DNA of 64,000 bases from Escherichia phage EC_OE_11, in the sequence record OQ108497.1, one strand, 5' to 3'. The position numbers were made by a program, and so were the translations under genes. A model generated the notes under the pieces. The model searched no databases, was not told where the DNA came from, and saw only the letters and a list, made by a program, of their open reading frames with translations. Positions 5,227-61,930 of this stretch are shown in pieces. How positions within the stretch are numbered: position 1 is the stretch's first letter; every line of letters starts with the position of its first letter.

Positions 5227-5790
5227 TTAAATAATTTTATTCATGTCTTGACAATGTAAAAGGTGTGAAACAGCTTTCCTAGGATCATCACTACCTAAAC
5301 GGTATGTGTGAAATAAATATAACCCACGTAATAAACCTAGCCTTTTGTTGTTAGCATGTAATGCTTTAGAGAAAATTATATCAAATTGTATTGACCTTTC
5401 CTCAAAAGGGATTTCATTCCACAGGCTCTTACGAAAGAGAAGAAAGAATCCTGCTAAGATAGCATCTGTAGGTACTTCCTCTATTGAGTTTCCCCATTCT
5501 AGATGTGCTCTTTTTGCAATTTCAATGTGGTGTAATATATTTGGATCTTCACTTCTTTCATTATTAAATAATTGATATGTTGATCCCAGTCTATTACAAG
5601 ATGCACCAAGAACATCAAAATCAGGATTTGAACGGACTATTGATTCCAACCAAGCAGGTTGTTCTGGAAGAAGAAACATTGTATCAATGTCTCTTAGGCA
5701 AATCCAACTATCTTCTGGTAAGACACTTATTGTGTCATTGATACCTTTTCCAATATCTCCAGAAAGATAGGGAGTTATGTGAAATATCAT
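5227..5790 (-). CDS. hypothetical protein (possibly glycosyltransferase-associated)
   Basis: 187-aa ORF in glycosyltransferase cluster. Confidence 0.45.
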   Translation of the reverse strand: MIFHITPYLSGDIGKGINDTISVLPEDSWICLRDIDTMFLLPEQPAWLESIVRSNPDFDVLGASCNRLGSTYQLFNNERSEDPNILHHIEIAKRAHLEWGNSIEEVPTDAILAGFFLLFRKSLWNEIPFEERSIQFDIIFSKALHANNKRLGLLRGLYLFHTYRLGSDDPRKAVSHLLHCQDMNKII

Positions 5791-9272: not shown

Positions 9273-9542
9273 TTATTTCTCCTTTCTGAGTGTAATGTTA
9301 GTAACTTCTAAATCCACTTCTACTACTTCTGTATCATATAAAATACAGTTAAGTTGACCTCTTTGTGAACCATTCAGACACATTGCTTGGTTTGTATTAA
9401 CCTTAATAAACACTAAGTTTCTGAACGTATCTAAACCAGCATCTTGATAGGCAACATAATATACGAATGTATCACCTGCGTCAAGTTCTCCAAAAGATTT
9501 AGGTTCATCTGATTTGTCGTCTTTGATATTAAATTTAAGCAC
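9273..9542 (-). CDS. hypothetical protein
   Basis: 89-aa ORF. Confidence 0.45.
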   Translation of the reverse strand: MLKFNIKDDKSDEPKSFGELDAGDTFVYYVAYQDAGLDTFRNLVFIKVNTNQAMCLNGSQRGQLNCILYDTEVVEVDLEVTNITLRKEK

Positions 9543-10098
9543 TGTCTTCTCCTTTACCTGCTCTCAAGCCTAAATAGAAAGCCTCTCTGGTGATCTTTTG
9601 CAACTCGTTTAAAGAGATAGTTACAACTAAATCATCTTCAATTTCTAGCCTTGAGTCTTCTTCTGTCTCAATGCAAGTATTATGCACTTTGTGGTAAGGA
9701 TTGTCAACACGTTTAAATTTATTATTTTCAGTGCTGAAGAAGCAATCTGGATCTTCTTCTCCATCACCCCAGCCCTGGTTAGGGTCTTCTTCAGATCTTT
9801 CTGTTGGGATCTCACCTGTAAAGTGCTCTTCTAATACCAGAGCAATACCATCCCCAAGATCGGAAGAGAACATCAAATTACAAACTTCTTCCCAAGGCAT
9901 AGACCACTTGAATCTTTTACGATTGCCATGTTTATCTTCTTCGTTAGAGAAAACACCACCATAGCTATCATAATTGCCATACATCTCTTCAACAACTTTA
10001 CCACCTTTCAAAAGAAATAGGTAGCAAGGAGAGCCATCGAAAGAGGTAGAAAGAGCAGCATTACCAGACTCTTTGCACAAGAAACTAAAGCACCCCAT
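9535..10098 (-). CDS. hypothetical protein
   Basis: 187-aa ORF. Confidence 0.5.
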   Translation of the reverse strand: MGCFSFLCKESGNAALSTSFDGSPCYLFLLKGGKVVEEMYGNYDSYGGVFSNEEDKHGNRKRFKWSMPWEEVCNLMFSSDLGDGIALVLEEHFTGEIPTERSEEDPNQGWGDGEEDPDCFFSTENNKFKRVDNPYHKVHNTCIETEEDSRLEIEDDLVVTISLNELQKITREAFYLGLRAGKGEDSA

Positions 10099-18738: not shown

Positions 18739-19209
18739 TTAGTCAGATTCCCAAATGTTGTCTTTCTTAACCCACATTCGTTGATTATCTGAACCTCTAT
18801 AACGTTTCGTTGTTGGTTGATTCATATCATACTTACCATCTATCACTATGTCAACCAGTTTTTTAATTTTTTCTGGAATTTCTTCAAAAAGATATCCTGT
18901 ATATAAAACAATATCTTTTTTGTTTCCAAAACAATCTCTTACCTTCTCAAGAACATACTCTACAGTGTCAATGTTCTCTTTGTCAAGAGGTTCACCACCT
19001 AAAACTGTTAATCCTTTAATGAAAGGTCGAGATAAATCTTCCAAGATAAGATCTAATGTTTCAGCAGTGAACTCTTGTCCGTAGTTATACGACCAGGCTT
19101 TCTGGTTAAAGCAGCCACGGCAACCGTGGCTGCAACCGCTCACCCACAAAGAGCATCTTACACCGTCACCGTTGAGCATGTCAACAGGTTCATATCCGGC
19201 GTAATTCAA
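18739..19209 (-). CDS. nrdG: anaerobic ribonucleotide reductase activating protein (radical SAM)
   Basis: GCSHGCRGC CxxxCxxC cluster; 4-bp overlap with nrdD. Confidence 0.8.
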   Translation of the reverse strand: MNYAGYEPVDMLNGDGVRCSLWVSGCSHGCRGCFNQKAWSYNYGQEFTAETLDLILEDLSRPFIKGLTVLGGEPLDKENIDTVEYVLEKVRDCFGNKKDIVLYTGYLFEEIPEKIKKLVDIVIDGKYDMNQPTTKRYRGSDNQRMWVKKDNIWESD

Positions 19210-21005
19210 AAGTGTTTCTCCCTTTCTAGTACCTCTTGCATTTTACCTTTATTATAAGGGCGAGAGTTAGGGGCAGAAAGGTATCCTGACACTCTTCTGA
19301 TCACAGATATGGATTCTTCTTCATGATTACCGCAACTTGGACACTCGAAGCCTTTAGCCGTTGCTTTAAATTCACCATGAAAACCACATTTGAAACACTG
19401 ATCTACAGGTTGGTTCACGCCAAAATAAGGAATTTTGTTGTAGGCATAATCTACAAGAGTTTCCAGTGCTTGCAAGTTATTTTTAAGGTTTGGTGTTTCT
19501 ACATAACCTATGTTCCCACCATTACTAATTTGTGCAAAACCTTCCTCATAATCCCATTTTTGGAACGGGGTAGTGTGCATCCATACAGGTTGATGGAAAG
19601 AGTTTGTCAAGTAGTCACGATCAATAGAACCAGGATAGCGATCATTTAACGCTTTGGCAAATTTATAGCACAAGGATTCTGCTGGTGTTCCATACAAACT
19701 AAAAGCTAAACCAGAACGTTCTTTAAATGTGCAACAGATATCCTTCATATATTGAAGGATGTTTTTACCCATTGCTTTTGGATTGGTGTTATTTGGGTAT
19801 AAAATTTCCATAGCTTCTGCTAAACCTACATAACCGATACTAATAGAGGCATAACCACCCTCAAATAGTTTACCAATCTCTTCATTAGCTTCTAGTCGAG
19901 CTAAAGCCCCTTCCATAAACAATGTAGGGTTTTGAGATGCTTTGGTATGTCTAATACGGTTAACACGTAGCATATGTGCCTTATACGCCATCTCCATATG
20001 TTGTTCCAACAGTTCAGTAAATAAGATGCCCTTTTCACGGGACTCTGCTGCAATGATAGGTAAGTTTAAAGAAACCACGCCTAAGTTGAAACGACCATCA
20101 TATTTTTCACCTTGCTCTGTTGCATAATATGACAAGAAACTACGGCAACCCATGCTTGTGACGCGACCATCTGAAGATCCTGTAACTTCTTTGTTTAAAG
20201 GTACAGAGATAAAATCAGGATAAATGCGTTCAGCACAACACTCCATTGCCAGTTGCTTCAAATCATAGTTTGGATCGCCAGCTTTCATGTTAACACCATC
20301 TTCCAAGAAGAAGATAACTTTAGGAAACACAGGAGTTACCCTATCTTTTCCTAATCCTTGTTTGTGCACCATTAGGTAGTTTTTAGTGATCATTCTACCA
20401 AAAGCAGAGGTATCCAAGCCTAAACTAATTGTTATAAAAGGTGACTGACCATTTACACTCATCAAGGTGTTCACCTGGTAGATTAAAGTTTGCATTGCAT
20501 CGTAAACCTGTTTATCTACCATACGCATAGCAATATCATAATCGCCAACATCGGCATAGATTTTATTAAAACTTGCTTTAACGTATTGACTAAGCCCAGT
20601 ATCAATATGTGCACAAGTTTGTCCACCATATTGGCTAGAAGCTACTGCTTGAATAATTTGAGTTAGGACAGTAGTTGCTACACCGATAGATTTTGGTTTT
20701 TCAATATGTGCATTACCAATACGGAAACCGTTCTCAAGCATATCTTGGTAATTTACCAGGCAACAATTAGTTAGAGGTGAGAGTAAATAATCTAAATCGT
20801 GAATATGACCATACCCACTTTTATGCCATTCTGCCAGATCTTCCGGTAAAATATGGGTCATTGCCATGTGCTTGCTTAGGATACCTGCTAGTAAGTCTCG
20901 GTGAGTATTAACAATCATTGCAGGTTTGTTTGCATTTTCACGAGTAAATTCTTCGGATGTTTGTTCGAGGAATCCGATTACATCCTCATATAGTTTTTGG
21001 GTCAT
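19206..21005 (-). CDS. nrdD: anaerobic ribonucleoside-triphosphate reductase
   Basis: C-terminal glycyl-radical RVSGY motif and CFKCG..CPSCG zinc ribbon; start moved to ATG at 21005 with GGAGG SD. Confidence 0.9.
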   Translation of the reverse strand: MTQKLYEDVIGFLEQTSEEFTRENANKPAMIVNTHRDLLAGILSKHMAMTHILPEDLAEWHKSGYGHIHDLDYLLSPLTNCCLVNYQDMLENGFRIGNAHIEKPKSIGVATTVLTQIIQAVASSQYGGQTCAHIDTGLSQYVKASFNKIYADVGDYDIAMRMVDKQVYDAMQTLIYQVNTLMSVNGQSPFITISLGLDTSAFGRMITKNYLMVHKQGLGKDRVTPVFPKVIFFLEDGVNMKAGDPNYDLKQLAMECCAERIYPDFISVPLNKEVTGSSDGRVTSMGCRSFLSYYATEQGEKYDGRFNLGVVSLNLPIIAAESREKGILFTELLEQHMEMAYKAHMLRVNRIRHTKASQNPTLFMEGALARLEANEEIGKLFEGGYASISIGYVGLAEAMEILYPNNTNPKAMGKNILQYMKDICCTFKERSGLAFSLYGTPAESLCYKFAKALNDRYPGSIDRDYLTNSFHQPVWMHTTPFQKWDYEEGFAQISNGGNIGYVETPNLKNNLQALETLVDYAYNKIPYFGVNQPVDQCFKCGFHGEFKATAKGFECPSCGNHEEESISVIRRVSGYLSAPNSRPYNKGKMQEVLEREKHF

Positions 21006-21023
21006 TAATCCTCCGTGGAAAAT

Positions 21024-21048
21024 AAAAGCCAGCATTAAGCTGGCTTTA
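21024..21048 (-). terminator. intrinsic terminator upstream of nrdD
   Basis: AAAGCCAGC-ttaat-GCTGGCTTT followed on minus strand by TATTTT. Confidence 0.6.
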
Positions 21049-21094
21049 GGGTGGATCTTTATTTTAAATCTTTTTCGTAAGATTGTCCTTGATC

Positions 21095-22045
21095 TTAGTC
21101 AAGGTTTTTGGTAATACGTGTACAACCGTCAGAAGTCAAACCGTCAACTTGAGTTTCCCAAGTACCATGAATATTTCGGAACAATGTTGTTACACCTTTT
21201 GGTTCATTAATAATGATTGCCATAACAAGTTTAGGATCGATAACAGACATAATCTTTTCCTCAATACCCTCTGTAATAACGTTATTGCGCACAATATTAA
21301 TTGCATCTTCTTGTACAGTAAGAACACTTACGTTCTTAAGAGTATATACCTGCTGTGTAGTGTAAATGATACGAACATAACTTACAGAACGAGTAGGCAC
21401 AGGTTTACGCGGTCGGCGAAAACGTGGTTTTGGTGAAGATTCAGTTTTACTTTCATCTTTTGAATAATACTCCTCAAACAGTTTAGTAAATGTTTTTACA
21501 TCAACTACAAACCGATCTTTCCGATATGGAGAATTCTTATGTGCACCATTAATACCACTGTTTTCATCGAAGAAAGTAATGTTTTCTTCAGTTGAATACA
21601 TTAGATAATGATCTGCATTGTTCCAATGTGGTTGTGGACAACGAGAATTACAAACGGAAAGCAGATAATTAATATTTTCTTTCGTGGCCTCAGTATCCAG
21701 GAAACACGTATTATGCACAGTCAGTTGTACTTTTTCAGCCATATCCTTTTCTTTATCCCCATTGGTAAGATATTCAGTACGAAGAATTTCCAGAAAATTT
21801 TCAGGTGTTACTTCCATAAATGTATATTCAGGATGAAGTTCCATATATTCAAATCCACAACCATCTAATTGCTGTAGAAAGTTAGGGTAGAAGAACAAAT
21901 CATTAACACTGTGAATCAGATCATTGATTTCTGCTTCAGTTGTGTAACCAAAACTTTTGTGAATTGCCTCGTTAAGAGTATGCAGGATACCCATCTCTTC
22001 TGCTGCTTTTTTAACTTCCAGTTTATTAGCGTAAAATGCAATCAT
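21095..22045 (-). CDS. hypothetical protein
   Basis: 316-aa ORF. Confidence 0.55.
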   Translation of the reverse strand: MIAFYANKLEVKKAAEEMGILHTLNEAIHKSFGYTTEAEINDLIHSVNDLFFYPNFLQQLDGCGFEYMELHPEYTFMEVTPENFLEILRTEYLTNGDKEKDMAEKVQLTVHNTCFLDTEATKENINYLLSVCNSRCPQPHWNNADHYLMYSTEENITFFDENSGINGAHKNSPYRKDRFVVDVKTFTKLFEEYYSKDESKTESSPKPRFRRPRKPVPTRSVSYVRIIYTTQQVYTLKNVSVLTVQEDAINIVRNNVITEGIEEKIMSVIDPKLVMAIIINEPKGVTTLFRNIHGTWETQVDGLTSDGCTRITKNLD

Positions 22046-34819: not shown

Positions 34820-35371
34820 ATGCGGATTACTGATAAGTATGTGTTCTTCTTCTCGGCAAAAGATGAATTTAGCAACTGGTATCTATCATCTTTTATTGAA
34901 CCTTTAGCTCCCAAGTATAATAATTCTATTACAAGTTCTGTTGAATTTACTTGTGTGGAACAATATATGATGTGGAGAAAAGCATGTTTGTTTTATGATT
35001 ACAACATTGCATCTTCTATTTTAACCGGAGATCTAAGATATACAGGAGAAAAAGAACAGGCATATTATAAGCGACTAGGTAGATTAGTTAAAGATTACGA
35101 TGAAGCTACTTGGACTTCTTTACGGGAGAAGATTGTCAAGCGTGGTTTGTATCTTAAATACACACAAAATGAAGATCTCAAAAATAAACTTATAGCTTAC
35201 GCAGATAAGGAGTTTGTAGAGGCAAGTCCTTATGATTCTATTTATGGTATCAAAATGGGGATGTGGGATCGGGACGTGGAAAATAAGGATTGTTGGAAAG
35301 GACAAAATCTTTTAGGAAAATGGCATACAGACCTTGCTGTTTATCTAAAATCACAATCTGATATTTCCTGA
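34820..35371 (+). CDS. NADAR-family protein (YbiA-like)
   Basis: FFFSAKDEFSNW, CVEQYMMWRKA, EASPYDSIYGIK, GQNLLGKW align to YbiA motifs. Confidence 0.7.
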   Translation: MRITDKYVFFFSAKDEFSNWYLSSFIEPLAPKYNNSITSSVEFTCVEQYMMWRKACLFYDYNIASSILTGDLRYTGEKEQAYYKRLGRLVKDYDEATWTSLREKIVKRGLYLKYTQNEDLKNKLIAYADKEFVEASPYDSIYGIKMGMWDRDVENKDCWKGQNLLGKWHTDLAVYLKSQSDIS

Positions 35372-35585
35372 TATTTTGAAAATTTTTACTTTTATAAAAA
35401 GGGGTGTGGGTTTCATGTACGGAAATCCACCCTCTGAATAATATATCCAGAGTAAATATTATTCTGTACTCTGTTAATAAAGTATTTAATTTGTTTGTTG
35501 GACTATGGTATCTGATCTTTAAAAGGCATACTATCTCTTAACTACTATTTATAACAGAACAGTAAAATCATTTTTATAAAAAGGA

Positions 35586-35790
35586 CAAAATTATTTAAAG
35601 TTTTTACAGATTTTTGGATACAAATTTTGAAAATGAAAAGTTCAAGTTTGGTCAAAATTATTTAAAGTTTTTGTACGTATTTCTATCCAGATTTTGAAAA
35701 TGAAAACTTCAATTTTTTAAAAATTCCCCAGTTTATTTAAAGTTTTTTTGCCTTTTTCCGTAGAAAAATCAAAAATGAAAAGTTCAATTT
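35586..35790. repeat. 3 tandem copies of about 67-bp AT-rich unit
   Basis: Each unit has AAAATTATTTAAAGTTTTT and ATTTTGAAAATGAAAAGTTCAA. Confidence 0.7.
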
Positions 35791-35811
35791 CGTGTTTTTA
35801 TAGGTGTGCGT

Positions 35812-35925
35812 ATGATAATCATTCTCATTTGTAAATGAGAATCATTATCATTTAATTATGTAAGTGATAATCATTCTCAGTAAGAGAATGAGAATCATTA
35901 GCAAATGAGAATTTTTCTCATTTAG
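35812..35925. promoter_or_regulatory. cluster of Fur-box-like motifs (GATAATCATTCTCATT / AATGAGAATCATTATC)
   Basis: At least 5 units in both orientations resembling Fur consensus GATAATGATAATCATTATC. Confidence 0.5.
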
Positions 35926-35929
35926 AGAA

Positions 35930-36480
35930 TAACGCGCAGGGGTGGTGTTTGTCTCGCGCTCCCGTGTCCCTCGCCATACAATAAGAATAGCATAACCAAC
36001 AACAAAAGCAAGCGATTATTTTTATCTTTACATTTCTTTACAAATTTATTTTAGACGAGCTACCGGCGATCAACCTTCCAACCAGTGCCCCTGGTATGTT
36101 AGCCCCGCCTTTACGCCGTGGGGGTGGCGCTTCCTCTTCTGTATGTAAAACAGTATAAGCCCGATCCCTGGGCTTGTCAAGATTATTTTTTGTTTTCTTG
36201 CCAGGAAAGGACACCTAACCAAAAATACATATCGCCCCGCGCCCCTGGCGGGATCTTGCTTTCCCCGCCGCCACTGCAAGCCCATAAATAACCATCAGCG
36301 AACGGATCAAAATGTTCTATCTCTTCCACCTTATGATCGCCCAGGTTGAGAACGGTTTCAACCTTTAAGCCCGTTGCGCTTGCTACCTGGTGCACCGTGC
36401 CGCCTTGCCAGCCCAATGAGTGCATGAGATGTAAAGGAGTATTTGTCATGGTATCGCCCTTTCTTTGATGTGCGCCCTGG
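35930..36480. other. GC-rich compositional island inside AT-rich non-coding hub
   Basis: Visibly GC-rich versus flanks; only weak ORFs. Confidence 0.5.
36183..36449 (-). CDS. hypothetical protein (88 aa) within GC-rich island; possibly acquired
   Basis: ATG 36449 with AAAGGGCG SD-like; atypical codon composition. Confidence 0.3.
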   Translation of the reverse strand: MTNTPLHLMHSLGWQGGTVHQVASATGLKVETVLNLGDHKVEEIEHFDPFADGYLWACSGGGESKIPPGARGDMYFWLGVLSWQENKK

Positions 36481-36714
36481 TTGGCGCGGTAGAAAGATAA
36501 TAGCCGTTTCCTTTATAGATAGCAAGCAAAAAGAAATGAAAAAAAGATTAAAAAATGGTTGACGTTCCTCACCTGGTAGCGTAGTATTCATCTTGTCGAG
36601 GGGGGCAAGGCACAACGACAATAAACAATAGGCGGGTGCAATGCAGGACGGGCAAAGGTGAGGATCTCCACAATCCACCGTCACAATAACATTACTTATA
36701 AAAGGTTGATAACG

Positions 36715-36810
36715 ATGATCAAGAAAGAAAACAGCTTGACGGTTGGAACGATTAACGCTATCATTCTAGCCGTTCCATTTTGGATTGTAGTAGCGGTTGT
36801 TATTTTCTAA
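36715..36810 (+). CDS. small membrane peptide (31 aa), speculative
   Basis: ATG 36715; single hydrophobic helix; weak SD. Confidence 0.25.
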   Translation: MIKKENSLTVGTINAIILAVPFWIVVAVVIF

Positions 36811-36819
36811 AAAATATTC

Positions 36820-36878
36820 TTGACAACGTTTTTTAATCTGATAAGATGTATCACATAGGGCGGCAATAGTGCCGCTCA
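36820..36878 (+). promoter_or_regulatory. promoter + 5'-leader stem-loop cassette (PeSL-like, type B)
   Basis: TTGACA-16nt-TAAGAT then GCGGC-aatagt-GCCGC hairpin, SD, ATG 36900. Confidence 0.55.
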
Positions 36879-36899
36879 TAACAGAAGAGAGAAATAATC

Positions 36900-37172
36900 A
36901 TGGCATCATATAGCGCATCAATGATCGTAACGGGCATGACTGGTAAACCTATGCGCGGTGGCGGATCTTTCGCTAACATCAATATTGATGGGCGTTTATC
37001 CCTGGATGCAGCGATCACCGTGGCACGGGAAACATTTAAAAAAGAATGTAATTTCAATAAACAAGATTATCTCGGCTTCGTTATTGAAAAAACCGCGCGC
37101 TTTGTTGATTATAAAAGCCCGAAAATGATCGACACTACACTAAAAGCGCAAGATGTAGCATTTTTGCTTTAA
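36900..37172 (+). CDS. hypothetical protein
   Basis: 90 aa. Confidence 0.55.
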   Translation: MASYSASMIVTGMTGKPMRGGGSFANINIDGRLSLDAAITVARETFKKECNFNKQDYLGFVIEKTARFVDYKSPKMIDTTLKAQDVAFLL

Positions 37173-37175
37173 GGC

Positions 37176-37235
37176 TTGACACTGAAAAATAATTTAGTAA
37201 TATATACCACATAGGGCGGGAAATGGTTTCCCGCC
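37176..37235 (+). promoter_or_regulatory. promoter + stem-loop cassette (type A: GGGCGGGaaatggtttCCCGCC)
   Basis: TTGACA-16nt-TAATAT then 22-nt hairpin. Confidence 0.6.
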
Positions 37236-45924: not shown

Positions 45925-46308
45925 ATGAGCAATATCATCAACCTGGCAGCGACTGTAAACGGTAAAGACTTTAACGGCGCTGTAGACCGTGATCCTATGT
46001 GGTGCTTGTCAGTGTTTAAAGGCGATCTGGTTGAAGTTAGAACAACCGAAGGTTATAGCGACGATTATAAATGCGAGATCCATTTACATAACTGGTACAC
46101 GGGGAAAACTTATGCGCTGAATCACGCGTTTATCGGGAAAATTGAATATCGCGAGATGATCGACGAAGAAACGGGGCAAGATTTTAGCGATTATGTTTAT
46201 ATCCGTTCAGAAACATTAGCCGAACGTTTGATCGAGAAAATGAAAGCAAAAAATAAAATTAATTTATCTCATTGGATTGATATAACAAACGATCCTGCTT
46301 ATCAGTAA
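45925..46308 (+). CDS. hypothetical protein (127 aa)
   Basis: Start moved to ATG 45925. Confidence 0.5.
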   Translation: MSNIINLAATVNGKDFNGAVDRDPMWCLSVFKGDLVEVRTTEGYSDDYKCEIHLHNWYTGKTYALNHAFIGKIEYREMIDEETGQDFSDYVYIRSETLAERLIEKMKAKNKINLSHWIDITNDPAYQ

Positions 46309-46332
46309 ATAACATTTCATACCAGGGCGCAC

Positions 46333-46360
46333 AAAGCGCCCTTTCTTTTTACCTAAATAA
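46333..46360 (+). terminator. intrinsic terminator
   Basis: GGGCGC-acaaa-GCGCCC + TTTCTTTT. Confidence 0.75.
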
Positions 46361-46554
46361 AGATGATAGCTTTTACCTATCAAAAACGTTCACCGAAAAA
46401 AGTGAATAGATCGCGGTATCGAGCTAATCAAGGAGCAGATGAACAACCATACCATGAAGATCATAAGGCGCTTACAACGTGTTTTAGACCGCTTATTTTT
46501 AATTTCTCAATGTAACTATCGGGCAAAAACAGCCTTTTTCTTGTCTTTCCTCTT

Positions 46555-46572
46555 AAATGATAATCATTCTTA
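46555..46572. promoter_or_regulatory. Fur-box-like motif AAATGATAATCATTCTTA
   Basis: Matches GATAATGATAATCATTATC-type consensus. Confidence 0.45.
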
Positions 46573-46610
46573 TTTATAGCTGATTATTTATGCAATAAAC
46601 TGCATAATGC

Positions 46611-46630
46611 AATAATGATAATCATTCTTA
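46611..46630. promoter_or_regulatory. Fur-box-like motif AATAATGATAATCATTCTTA
   Basis: Second copy about 55 bp downstream. Confidence 0.45.
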
Positions 46631-46924
46631 ACTTATGACCATCTAACCTATAAAATAATAAGTTATCTAACTAAATTAAAGCTAACTATTTCACCTTTAT
46701 TTATAACTTACTGTTACTATCTCATTGATAACCTTATATTAAACAACAATAACTAATATAAATCATTACTAAGCTAAATATAATCTATCTAACCTTTAAA
46801 ACTATAACTATAATCTATCGAATTGTTGCACAAAGTAACTATTAAATTGTTAGTAACATTACTAAATAATTCACATCCTATCTATTTATGATCTAATCTT
46901 TACCTTCCTATCTATTACCTAAGT

Positions 46925-46956
46925 AATCATTTCATACAGCAATCATTTCATACAAC
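46925..46956. repeat. tandem direct repeat AATCATTTCATACA(G/A)C x2
   Basis: Two adjacent 16-bp units in ORF-free AT-rich region. Confidence 0.6.
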
Positions 46957-47019
46957 AACTATAACAAGAAATATAATTAGCAAGCGTATCATTAGCAGCC
47001 TATGCCGGACACATAGGCG

Positions 47020-47165
47020 GCTAATAATAACGCAACTACACACCCCACATAATAACCATCACCGATAGTTATTATCTGTGCTTATGTAGCTTGCAACAAT
47101 TGCAAGCGCAACAATATACATGGTATATTGTATCCCTTACATTGTTGCGGTGCGTTATTATTAGC
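47020..47165. repeat. large dyad-symmetry element: 14-bp inverted repeats flanking about 120 bp with internal hairpins
   Basis: GCTAATAATAACGC at 47020-47033 vs exact reverse complement at 47152-47165; internal CGCAACAAT...ATTGTTGCG hairpin. Confidence 0.6.
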
Positions 47166-47511
47166 TAATGTTTGGAACATTGGCTATAATATAAGCTACA
47201 TATAATAAGCTATTCAATAATAAACATCGTGAATAATGACATTGAAATGAATAATGACACTGATGATCATAATGCGCCACCTTCCAGGGGGCGCTATGTG
47301 AACACAAAGAAATCTTTCTTGTCAAGAAAAATATCACCATTATTGCGCAAAATTATTTATATCTGAATAGATGATTTTTCATACTATTGCCCCTATACAC
47401 TACCTCATTTGTTGCAATGTATCCCCCTATTTGTTGAGCCTATTCTCTTAAAAGCGCAATAAATCAGAATTATCTTGATTTTTAGTGGATTTTATAGTAT
47501 AGAAAATATGC

Positions 47512-47529
47512 AAATGATAATCATTATCA
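47512..47529. promoter_or_regulatory. Fur-box-like motif AAATGATAATCATTATCA
   Basis: Near-consensus Fur-box-like palindrome. Confidence 0.45.
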
Positions 47530-47694
47530 GCTATCTTCCACGGGTGGCACTATTTCACGCCAGATCATTTCATTTGGCAAGGTGTATATAGATGTTTAGA
47601 AATGCCAAGCCATTGATTTACTTAGAATTTATCTGTTTTGTTGTGAGTAGTGCCTTTCTTGCTCAGAAAATAATCAAAAGTCTTATAAGTCATT

Positions 47695-47730
47695 GAATGA
47701 TAATGCAAATGATAATAATTCTCATTGATA
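47695..47730. promoter_or_regulatory. tandem Fur-box-like motifs
   Basis: GAATGATAATGCAAATGATAATAATTCTCATTGA. Confidence 0.45.
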
Positions 47731-47846
47731 TTTGAGGGGGACGGTCGGCAGAAATCGGGGGGCGCTGAAAATCGCGTTAAGCACCTCTCGCAAGCGAGCA
47801 GTATTTTGCGGCAAGTTATTGATATTATTGGCTTTACGCTTATGGA

Positions 47847-47954
47847 AAGGGGGTGTGTCGAAATAAATCGGGTATACCGGAAAATTTTTGTGGCATAGAT
47901 ATTTATTTGTCTATATTATGTACAAAGGGGTGTGTTAAAAATATTAGGTATATA
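47847..47954 (+). repeat. two copies of about 30-bp direct repeat (AAAGGGGTGTGT..AAATA..GGTATA), possible promoter elements
   Basis: 47847-47876 and 47924-47954, about 75 bp apart, upstream of first gene of 48-60 kb cluster. Confidence 0.5.
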
Positions 47955-48085
47955 TAGAATAATTGATAGGGAAATCCTATACTAATTCCTCTATTAATGA
48001 TGCTTCTAGGTTGCTGTTCTTGTAATAGATGAAAAGACGCTATATGATGTGTGGCATGAAACGTAAATTTATAAAGGAGTCTGAT

Positions 48086-48445
48086 ATGTGTGTTCCTCTT
48101 AGCAGTCCACTGCTGTTAGAATTTTACAAAGCATGGATGGAAGATCATTCCTCAATGCATCGTGAGAATGTTGGTTTGTGTAATTGCCTTATGGATTACC
48201 TGGCAACCACTATGTCAAAGAAAAAACCTACGGAAGAAGATATAGAATATTTCAAGATGGTTCGTAGCAAAACGCTGGAAGAGATGAAACTGCAATTCAC
48301 GTGTGCTGGGCTATGCTCCTTCCTACCCTTTAATTATGATCTTCTGTGTTATGAAGATGAAGGTAAGACACATTCTTGCCATACCAACCCAAAGAGATTG
48401 CAGTGGGTGAAAGATCGTATTGCCGATTCATGCAAGGGTGTGTAG
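48086..48445 (+). CDS. paralog family member A (conserved-Cys family)
   Basis: ATG 48086 with AAAGGAG SD; shared LLEFYKAW, GLC.CL, FTCAGL, LPFN.D, RLQWVKDRI. Confidence 0.55.
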   Translation: MCVPLSSPLLLEFYKAWMEDHSSMHRENVGLCNCLMDYLATTMSKKKPTEEDIEYFKMVRSKTLEEMKLQFTCAGLCSFLPFNYDLLCYEDEGKTHSCHTNPKRLQWVKDRIADSCKGV

Positions 48446-48446
48446 A

Positions 48447-48602
48447 ATGTTGGAATTGATTGGGATAGTTTGGTTAATGATAAAAGCAGGTTTCGTCGGT
48501 TTCGGACTTCTTATAATTTTGTGTATGTTCCTTAGTGCAATACAGGCATTCTTTTATCTGCTAGGTAGAATACTTAAGTTGGGAGGTGATAATGAAAAGT
48601 AA
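48447..48602 (+). CDS. small membrane protein (51 aa)
   Basis: ATG 48447 right after upstream stop. Confidence 0.4.
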   Translation: MLELIGIVWLMIKAGFVGFGLLIILCMFLSAIQAFFYLLGRILKLGGDNEK

Positions 48603-61117: not shown

Positions 61118-61930
61118 TTATTTAGTCAAATGATCTTCTATCATTTTTATGAAAGCAGGATTGCTAAAAGCATCTGCGGCCTTTTCTCGATAAACAAAGA
61201 CTCCTCTATCTTCGTAAAGAAGAGTTTCTTCGTAATTAATTCCTGGGTTAACAACGATCATTTTTGTACCCATATTAAGTGCAGGGAATAATTCCCAATT
61301 AAAATTGATAACTTGGTTTGAACATCCTACTACTACAACCAAATCTTGCATGGTCAAAGTATCAAACAAGTGAGCCATATCTGCATACAAAGGTGCAGCC
61401 TCACCAAAAAATACAACATTAGGCTTCACCCAGTTGTAATCATCTATGTTTATACTGTTGTAACCAATATCTACCAGTGTTTTGTAATCCCCAGGATGCA
61501 TACGGTAAACTATTTCAGGAAGATATCCGTGCACGTGAATAACCGAATCTCTGTCTACACCTGCTCGCTCTAGTAGATCATCGACGTTTGTTGTCAAGTT
61601 TACTACTTGGTTAGGATATTCCTTAAACCACTTTGCTATTTGAATATGTGCAGCATTAGGTTGTACATCTTTAAGCTCAACACGTCTTTTGTTATAAAAT
61701 TCGTGTGTTTTGGCATACAAATCCATACCGTTCTCGTCTACACCACCAACCACGGGAAGATCTGGAGATGTTCTAACACGATAACCTGCTTGGAAAGCTC
61801 CAATATCGCAGACCTCTTCTAAATCATATTCTTCCCATAAGGCACGACCACTATCGGTGTCTGTTCGGAATGTTCGAATCCCACTGTCTGCACTTAAACC
61901 TGCGCCACTGACAAAAATTACTCTTCGCAT
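61118..61930 (-). CDS. Sir2-family protein (sirtuin-like NAD-dependent deacylase or ADP-ribosyltransferase)
   Basis: VIFVSGAGLSADSGIRTFR, PNAAHIQIA, TTNVDDLLERAG...HVHG, VVFFGE, VVVGCSNQV; no obvious Zn-binding CxxC pairs. Confidence 0.75.
   Translation of the reverse strand: MRRVIFVSGAGLSADSGIRTFRTDTDSGRALWEEYDLEEVCDIGAFQAGYRVRTSPDLPVVGGVDENGMDLYAKTHEFYNKRRVELKDVQPNAAHIQIAKWFKEYPNQVVNLTTNVDDLLERAGVDRDSVIHVHGYLPEIVYRMHPGDYKTLVDIGYNSINIDDYNWVKPNVVFFGEAAPLYADMAHLFDTLTMQDLVVVVGCSNQVINFNWELFPALNMGTKMIVVNPGINYEETLLYEDRGVFVYREKAADAFSNPAFIKMIEDHLTK

Follow-up and report, generated by a model that had tools for sequence, protein, structure and literature searches.

Fur-box-like palindromes at a non-coding hub and the terminal repeat of Escherichia phage EC_OE_11: a candidate Fur-bound boundary element

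A cluster of palindromes resembling the binding site of Fur, the global iron sensor of the host, lies in a non-coding hub of Escherichia phage EC_OE_11. Which protein reads these palindromes, and what could an array of them do in a phage genome? The DNA analyzed here, referred to as the window, comprises 64,000 nucleotides of sequence record OQ108497.1. The region shares 97-99% identity with E. coli myoviruses of the phi92-like group (outra, PaulScherrer, alia, and phi92; Justusliebigvirus, Stephanstirmvirinae). The hub is a gap of about 0.8 kb without an annotated gene, between a NADAR-domain gene that ends at 35371 and a leftward open reading frame (ORF) at 36183-36449. The other genes flanking it encode proteins without assigned function. 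No iron gene adjoins the boxes, and the nearest correctly oriented start codon is about 1 kb away. Our answer starts from a motif that is in statistical excess, restricted in position, conserved, and equivalent in sequence to proven operators. We favor, with a probability of about 0.45, the reading that the five palindromes of the hub are high-affinity sites for host Fur-Fe2+ rather than for a phage protein, and that the array serves as an iron-sensing architectural or boundary element. Judged by sequence, Fur binding to the boxes is likely. We infer that Fur occupies them during infection, and the boundary function of the array is a conjecture.

Sequence equivalence of the boxes to Fur operators

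Five boxes at 35810-35923 share the 21-bp consensus AAATGA(G/T)AATCATT(C/A)TCATTT, in which 15-bp cores are flanked by AAA/TTT-like bases. A preliminary description of the window had reported a cluster of at least five palindromic units close to the Fur consensus; the cluster was confirmed, and four boxes with cores beginning at 46558, 46616, 47515, and 47710 lie beyond it. The boxes, to which no strand is assigned, and the terminal repeat are listed below.

35810-35830: Fur-like box 1, GTATGATAATCATTCTCATTT, core TGATAATCATTCTCA at 35813-35827; phage-matrix score 25.9 bits, E. coli-derived matrix score 21.0 bits
35833-35853: Fur-like box 2, AAATGAGAATCATTATCATTT, core TGAGAATCATTATCA at 35836-35850; 16/19 matches to the consensus; 31.5 and 24.6 bits on the same two matrices
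35862-35882: Fur-like box 3, AAGTGATAATCATTCTCAGTA, core TGATAATCATTCTCA at 35865-35879
35886-35906: Fur-like box 4, GAATGAGAATCATTAGCAAAT, core TGAGAATCATTAGCA at 35889-35903; 16/19 matches to the consensus
35903-35923: Fur-like box 5, AAATGAGAATTTTTCTCATTT, core TGAGAATTTTTCTCA at 35906-35920; the weakest of the five
46555-46575: distal Fur-like box, AAATGATAATCATTCTTATTT, core at 46558-46572; in a 1.5-kb non-coding region left of the terminal repeat
46613-46633: distal Fur-like box, TAATGATAATCATTCTTAACT, core at 46616-46630; in the same 1.5-kb non-coding region
47437-47779, plus strand: direct terminal repeat, equivalent to the 343-bp repeat of phi92 and 97% identical to it; phi92 annotation mapped onto the window
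47512-47532: Fur-like box in the terminal repeat, AAATGATAATCATTATCAGCT, core at 47515-47529; perfect 7-1-7 core, 17/19 matches; phi92 positions 79-93
47707-47727: Fur-like box in the terminal repeat, AAATGATAATAATTCTCATTG, core at 47710-47724; phi92 positions 274-288

Box 2 is inverted relative to box 1, and the centre-to-centre spacings in the hub are 23, 29, 24, and 17 bp. The boxes of the terminal repeat lie 79-93 and 274-288 bp from the genome end. Near-complete genome coverage was obtained with a composite of about 148 kb, consisting of the window, positions 1-50 kb of phi92, and an unannotated Justusliebigvirus record. In the matrix scan of this composite, no further strong box was found. 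Strong boxes, 9-11 per genome, are confined to the hub, to the terminal repeat, or to a site about 0.9 kb from the terminal repeat.

The 0.9 kb immediately left of the terminal repeat (46516-47437, 30% G+C) contains many other short repeats. Examples are 'aatcatttcataca', present twice near 46926-46955, 'aataatgaca', present twice near 47233-47262, and a GC-rich palindrome at about 46998-47020.

The boxes were compared with the classical 19-mer Fur consensus, GATAATGATAATCATTATC, and with the 7-1-7 unit, TGATAATnATTATCA. Window boxes match the 19-mer at 15-17 of 19 bases (in the hub, two positions at 16/19 and two at 15/19), and their cores carry 0-2 mismatches to the 7-1-7 unit, except for the weak fifth box. 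Five matches to the 19-mer with no more than 3 mismatches occur in the window, against 0.03 expected from shuffled sequences, so the claimed closeness to the Fur consensus was borne out. The scan with a Fur position weight matrix that the preliminary description had proposed points the same way. A matrix derived from E. coli operators was run over the two non-coding regions, 2.3 kb in all, and gave 10 matches scoring 12 bits or more, against 0.14 expected; the maximum in 500 composition-matched simulations was 2 matches. On this matrix, window boxes score 15.7-24.6 bits; its sites were chosen via the phage matrix, though they coincide with published sites (PMC2189734).

The reciprocal comparison used a phage matrix built solely from 23 phage boxes, which was scanned on 200 kb of E. 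coli K-12. The top matches were ryhB (25.6 bits), fecI, a map/rpsB site, entC, fhuA, fecA, fepA/fes, fepB, and fepD/entS, and known Fur operators make up nine of the top 12. The map/rpsB site, AATTGAGAATCATTCTGAATT, scores 20.8 bits and falls between map/tff and rpsB, at genome position ~189,580; to our knowledge, it has not been described as a Fur target. For the operators recovered, published Fur sites at the same places are backed by footprints or gel shifts (Chen et al., 2007; PMC2189734).

Tandem arrangement was searched for across 185,579 bacterial species, each represented by a single genome. Pairs of strong boxes separated by 2-25 bp were found at only 17 loci. At the ten loci inspected, the array lies 12-80 bp upstream of iron-uptake-type genes, which encode TonB-dependent receptors (five loci), a PF13343/SBP_bac_6 solute-binding protein, and a FecCD permease. 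In crystal structures of Fur-DNA complexes, Arg57 contacts a guanine and Lys15 reads an AT-rich stretch, with minor-groove readout (PMC4506495). The invariant G and AAT of each phage half-site fit this guanine contact and AT-rich readout. The fourth base of the half-site alternates between G and T (TGAGAAT and TGATAAT), as it does in ryhB, fhuA, fecI, and fecA. Chromosomal Fur operators (ryhB, fhuA, fecI, entC, and those of proteobacterial TonB-dependent receptor genes) therefore have the same consensus, the same G/T tolerance, and the same tandem two-box pattern as the phage arrays. At the sequence level, neither the phage motif nor its tandem arrangement can be distinguished from what the Fur regulon shows. 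The sites of other E. coli regulators, KdgR, ArgR, IHF, and Zur, are not known to fit the invariant AAT.ATT core.

The same motif in other phages and its likely reader

The preliminary description had regarded Fur boxes as unexpected in a lytic phage. This premise has to be revised: the motif is present in six genera of the rV5/phi92-like group, in T5-like siphoviruses, at lambda cos, and in at least 10 unrelated viral contigs, as a conserved feature that had gone unrecognized. A distant BLAST search with the box cluster matched the T5-like siphoviruses. In T5, the motif corresponds to copies 1-4 of the annotated "direct repeat C" and to palindromes E, G, H, and I, at 9468-9637, and the T5 box at 9576-9596 (AAATGAGAATCATTATCATTT) is identical to window box 2. 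The array belongs to the left terminal repeat, as its Repeat Region 3, where the first-step-transfer shear point at about 9618 (7.9%) and the injection stop signal have been placed (10.1101/866236). In a 2020 preprint comparing 25 T5-like phages, Davison described the repeats as extremely conserved, discussed DnaA boxes, left Fur unmentioned, and called the function "impossible to guess" (10.1101/866236). No link of the T5 repeats to Fur was found in the T5 literature searched. In the T5-like genome Kenya-K43, of which 100 kb were scanned, boxes occur only at the left terminus (4 and 204), weakly at 5730, and in four copies at 9358-9480. The left-terminal boxes of Kenya-K43 occupy 1-21 and 201-221, and a T5 box at 230-250 lies within the 3' part of dmp, so that both genomes have a box no more than about 250 bp from their left terminus.

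Lambda has one strong box in 48.5 kb, a perfect TGATAATCATTATCA at 48452-48466 that scores 26.6 bits (the next best site scores 6.3). It stands 36 bp short of the right (cohesive) end, with GGGTCCT, presumably cosQ, at a distance of 7 bp. The Qin prophage carries the box GTGATAATGATTATCATC, with core TGATAATGATTATCA, upstream of nohA, and this box differs from the lambda box only at the unconstrained central base. The "nohA" Fur site was selected in vivo and was shifted by Fur in vitro (PMC2189734). Sites of the nohA/nohB type score 22.3 and 25.3 bits, and that of DLP12 nohB is among the strongest in E. coli (PMC2189734). The published nohA and nohB Fur sites are thus the cos-adjacent boxes of the cryptic prophages Qin and DLP12. 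They have been catalogued as promoter sites of genes and are not discussed as part of cos, and no literature linking Fur with cos or cosQ was found. Like window box 47515, the lambda/Qin box has a perfect 7-1-7 core; as in the phi92-like phages, a phage genome end is tens of bp away and no iron gene is nearby. Unlike the phi92-like case, it is a single box and not an array, and lambda is a temperate cos phage.

A scan of IMG/VR gave arrays of 2-9 boxes in at least 10 contigs unrelated to T5 or phi92, with G+C contents of 0.35-0.54; one of these contigs is distantly related to Queuovirinae. The arrays often stand in large non-coding gaps, near terminase genes or contig ends. Seven contigs have 3-9 boxes at regular spacings of 29, 30, 37, or 41 bp. 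Their arrays often stand no more than ~1.3 kb from the end of the contig, or else occupy a non-coding gap above 1 kb with terminase or primase genes close by. This end bias is only suggestive, since several contigs are related and repeats can break assemblies.

The spread of the motif bears on its reader. The box sequence is constant between genera, as would be expected of sites for an invariant host protein. The direct repeats of the hub, by comparison, diverge between subfamilies, as expected of sites for a co-evolving phage protein. In an all-against-all comparison, the ORF sets of phi92-like and T5-like phages shared only NrdD, a Sir2 protein, a cell-wall hydrolase, and a few unannotated ORFs. 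The window genes for NrdD (45% identity) and the Sir2-family protein (52% identity) in common with T5-like phages are on the minus strand at 19209-21098 and 61121-61930. No Fur homologue was found in either phage genome by tblastn with a manually typed E. coli Fur query, and the genes neighboring the arrays have no common protein family across unrelated contigs. The phage-encoded regulator offered by the preliminary description is therefore disfavored, since no DNA-binding protein was found to be common to the unrelated phages that carry the motif. In seven of the nine window boxes, one half is of the TGATAAT type and the other of the TGAGAAT type, which breaks internal pairing at positions 4 and 12. 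Because the halves are mismatched in this way, the boxes appear to have been selected as protein sites and not as hairpins. In phAPEC8, four boxes follow one another at an exact 29-bp spacing, without the larger inverted pattern that boxes 1-2 and 3-4 form here. Taken as a whole, the preliminary interpretation stands in its Fur-box resemblance, which the reciprocal matrix and the bacterial iron-gene arrays reinforce, calls for revision in its premise of unexpectedness, and is disfavored in its phage regulator.

Hub layout and a candidate boundary function

The other elements of the hub are as follows.

35400-35435, plus strand: GC-rich hairpin (-19 kcal/mol), 3' of the NADAR-domain gene
35570-35790, plus strand: three direct repeats of 67-75 bp, 21% G+C (family D1)
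35926-36150, no strand assigned: GC-rich non-coding block, starting ~5 bp past box 5; 76% mean column identity over six genera
36180-36152, minus strand: sigma-70 promoter TTGACA-17-TATACT, directed leftward at the boxes; 11/12 matches
36183-36449, minus strand: conserved 88-aa ORF inside the hub, phi92 gp224; AlphaFold model with a predicted local distance difference test score (pLDDT) of 94.6

One order is found in the six genera of the rV5/phi92 group: three to five direct repeats, one to five boxes, the GC-rich block, and the leftward promoter. The position of box 5, next to the GC-rich block, is occupied by a box in six of six genera examined, and in all seven aligned genomes a box stands at a fixed distance of ~5 bp from the start of the conserved block (alignment A1). 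The hexamers of the leftward promoter are kept in seven of seven genomes while its spacer varies (alignment A2, columns 21-52), which is good evidence that the promoter is real. The boxes lie about 230 nt downstream of it; the route crosses the GC-rich block, and the 21% G+C repeats follow beyond the boxes. The hairpin at 35400-35435 is likely the end of a rightward unit converging on the hub, and the hub is a convergent zone that is apparently untranscribed.

Should Fur bind as proposed, one or two Fur dimers would sit on each 21-bp box in an iron-replete cell, and the array would turn into a nucleoprotein complex about 110 bp long. This complex, within a non-transcribed zone, would separate the leftward promoter and the GC-rich block from the three AT-rich direct repeats. 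It could be a roadblock to RNA polymerase that started at the leftward promoter, keep nucleoid proteins from spreading past it, or stand in the way of a DNA motor. With sufficient iron, the repeats would be insulated by the Fur-Fe2+ coat; with scarce iron, they would be released. The hub array may act jointly with the four boxes in or near the terminal repeat, where a similar action at the DNA ends is conceivable. The coupling of phage expression or replication to iron status, as suggested in the preliminary description, is possible, though the boxes overlap no convincing promoter.

The nearest precedent of the boundary type is the Fur-box array upstream of E. coli ftnA, which, as Nandal et al. 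reportedly found in 2010, activates the gene by displacing H-NS. It likewise consists of several discrete Fur boxes, distant from the promoter, that form a barrier to a spreading nucleoid protein. Unlike the phage hub, it serves a host ferritin gene with a clear iron logic. A part for H-NS at the hub is hypothetical, although the repeats beside the boxes have 21% G+C. Lytic phages do use host-factor sites: cyanophages carry NtcA and PhoB boxes, which are promoter-associated. The IHF sites of lambda cosB, the DnaA boxes proposed for the injection stop signal of T5, and the cyanophage boxes resemble the present case as conserved sites for a host DNA-binding protein that either reflects the physiology of the host or shapes the DNA. 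Fur in such a role for lytic phages was not found in the literature searched, and no example is known to us.

Several points weigh against the reading of the array as a Fur-bound boundary element. No promoter adjoins the hub boxes, over which the best scan match is 9/12 and lies inside the palindromes, and no promoter was found overlapping the boxes of the terminal repeat or the other distal boxes. Chromosomal operators are repressor sites in promoters, 12-80 bp ahead of iron genes; the phage boxes overlap no convincing promoter and stand hundreds of bp away from any start codon, and since they are not beside a promoter, the usual mode of Fur action does not apply. We know of no report that fur mutants are defective hosts for T5 or lambda, so any effect of Fur would be modulatory. 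A small, fast-evolving DNA-binding protein common to these phages could lie below BLAST sensitivity. The phage half-sites favor G at the fourth position (TGAGAAT, 64%), where the Fur consensus has T; the strong natural operators ryhB, fhuA, and fecI likewise carry G there. Many E. coli operators consist of overlapping sites offset by 6 bp (PMC2189734), whereas the phage boxes are discrete and 17-29 bp apart.

The boxes might instead be read by a protein of the phage, or by one of the host that is not Fur, such as a replication initiator, a packaging or end-recognition protein, or a DNA-entry factor, with the likeness to Fur boxes being incidental. The hub does look origin-like, since a strong promoter is directed at its direct repeats and AT-rich DNA; it also encodes the conserved 88-aa protein without assigned function, and boxes occur in the terminal repeat, beside lambda cosQ, and near the terminase genes of some viral contigs. 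As an origin with iterons, the hub has the direct repeats, the AT-rich region, and the inward transcription. No skew extremum, DnaA box, or initiator gene was found there, and the cumulative GC-skew minimum, at about 30 kb, follows gene orientation. We consider this alternative doubtful, because the motif-bearing lineages have no common protein family, the motif with its flanks is the same as that upstream of bacterial iron-uptake genes, and the Qin/lambda-type box binds Fur. A classical Fur operator, in which the box near the GC-rich block would repress a rightward promoter with a transcript start at the conserved block, so that a hub RNA or downstream early genes are turned on only at low iron, is unlikely. 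It would account for the fixed distance between box and block; a weak TTGAAT-18-CAGAAT/CGGAAT arrangement, with its spacer taken up by the box, exists in Seunavirus and Henunavirus alone, and a -10-like nAGAAT is kept in six of seven genomes. The -35 element, however, is absent in Justusliebigvirus, Phapecoctavirus, and the rV5-like W70 (GCAAAT, GTAAAT, and GAGGTG, respectively). The promoter scan here reached no more than 9/12, within boxes 1-2, whereas the true early promoters of the phage are near-consensus. The four extra boxes, including those in the terminal repeat, have no promoter partner, and a rightward RNA has no covariation support.

The sink proposed in the preliminary description would use the 9-11 replicating boxes to titrate Fur and derepress host iron uptake, providing iron for phage enzymes such as ribonucleotide reductases. 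Box scores equal or exceed those of the best E. coli operators, and multicopy Fur boxes derepress the regulon, which is the principle of the Fur titration assay. The phage encodes NrdD and an ORF matching a 759-aa T5-like ORF, which is presumably NrdA. A sink is nevertheless very unlikely, since it would not need the strict placement at hub and termini and does not explain the single fixed-position box of one-box genera; moreover, lambda has one box only. In T5, early degradation of host DNA would make derepression pointless (PMC13250531). Structure in the nucleic acid itself, whether DNA cruciforms or RNA hairpins at which the leftward hub transcript would terminate, with no sequence-specific protein, seems extremely improbable. 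Boxes 1 and 2 do form a 19-nt inverted repeat with 95% complementarity (pair I5), they stand downstream of a conserved promoter, and weak microRNA-like Rfam matches reflect hairpin potential; in the Rfam scan of 35000-37200 at permissive E-values, such hairpins, all sub-threshold, were the sole matches. The internal mismatches of seven of the nine boxes, half-sites that vary independently without compensation, the loss of the larger inverted arrangement in phAPEC8, and the lack of a U-tract after the hairpins on either strand all speak against it. The primary sequence is also conserved across unrelated phages beyond the need of a structure. Covariation terms for the box plus GC-rich block in seven genomes, -1.17 and +0.19 kcal/mol on the two strands, are unconvincing.

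Among the neighboring elements, three to five direct repeats are present in each genus examined, with a sequence that differs between subfamilies. They resemble iterons for a co-evolving phage protein and may be an origin marker. The GC-rich block is 85-87% identical in distant genera and has several invariant stretches of 9-15 bp, such as ACCGGCGAT. The Rfam scan assigned it to no family, no ORF is conserved in it, and RNAalifold on the seven-genome alignment gave no convincing covariation on either strand. Together with the leftward promoter, the block could represent a primer or regulatory RNA, or a DNA element. In a structure search, the gp224 AlphaFold model had no significant structural neighbor and no DNA-binding one. 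Deposited records of relatives label the hub "repeat_region" at most. On the rV5 genome map the region is just a "non-coding" box, and the authors of that map did not succeed in placing an origin (PMC3606486).

Parallels with T5 and further observations

The T5 and phi92-like arrays occupy similar fractional positions. The T5 array lies at 7.78-7.92% of the genome from the first-entering end; the hub array lies 11,512-11,619 bp (7.75-7.82%) from the right end of phi92 (136,993-137,100), a possible first-entering end. In both, the array is in a large untranslated region between convergent transcription units, lineage-specific direct repeats lie on its inward side (DRD, nine copies, in T5; three of ~70 bp here), and the terminal segment is full of small early genes, of which those nearest the end are transcribed toward it. 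The T5 array is inside a 10-kb terminal repeat, whereas the phi92-like hub is outside its 343-bp repeat. The T5 array adjoins paired DnaA boxes in the inverted repeats IRD'-spacer-IRC', and none occur at the phi92-like hub: the DnaA box TTWTNCACA had no match in 35000-37000 or 46300-48200. Homologues of the T5 pre-early proteins A1/A2 were found neither in the window by tblastn nor in the composite genome, and two-step DNA entry, as in T5, is not known for phi92-like phages.

The matching fractional positions could be a coincidence. That phi92-like phages enter or are activated in stages, in the manner of T5, with Fur taking part, appears quite improbable. We regard as equally improbable a more general scheme, in which Fur-box arrays would be a widespread and so far unrecognized cis element marking genome ends and the inner border of the first-entering segment. 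Under that scheme, Fur would be part of the T5 injection stop signal, phi92/rV5-like phages would have two-stage delivery or activation with a boundary at about 7.8%, and iron status would gate entry or early-to-middle progression in several phage families.

Fur boxes are already known, as are the nohA/nohB sites as promoter sites. What is new here is best described as host-regulator sites in a phage genome in the form of a non-promoter, end-associated array. No literature linking Fur to T5 repeats, phi92, terminal repeats, or rV5/phi92-like hubs was found. If Fur occupies the arrays, a global iron sensor would be a host factor in cis on lytic-phage DNA, at the ends and at the border of the early region rather than at iron genes. 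Fur would then be the first named candidate protein for T5 repeats that have been annotated since 1987-2005, at the pause site of a DNA transfer whose mechanism has been open for decades. Phage therapy would also be concerned, as rV5/phi92-like and T5-like phages are common candidates and infection sites are iron-limited, a state in which Fur would leave the boxes.

Several records named 'Campylobacter phage' (A150, C3, A110a, B15, and C13) show 93-97% identity to phi92-like or T5-like phages of E. coli. These records are probably mislabelled or contaminant assemblies.

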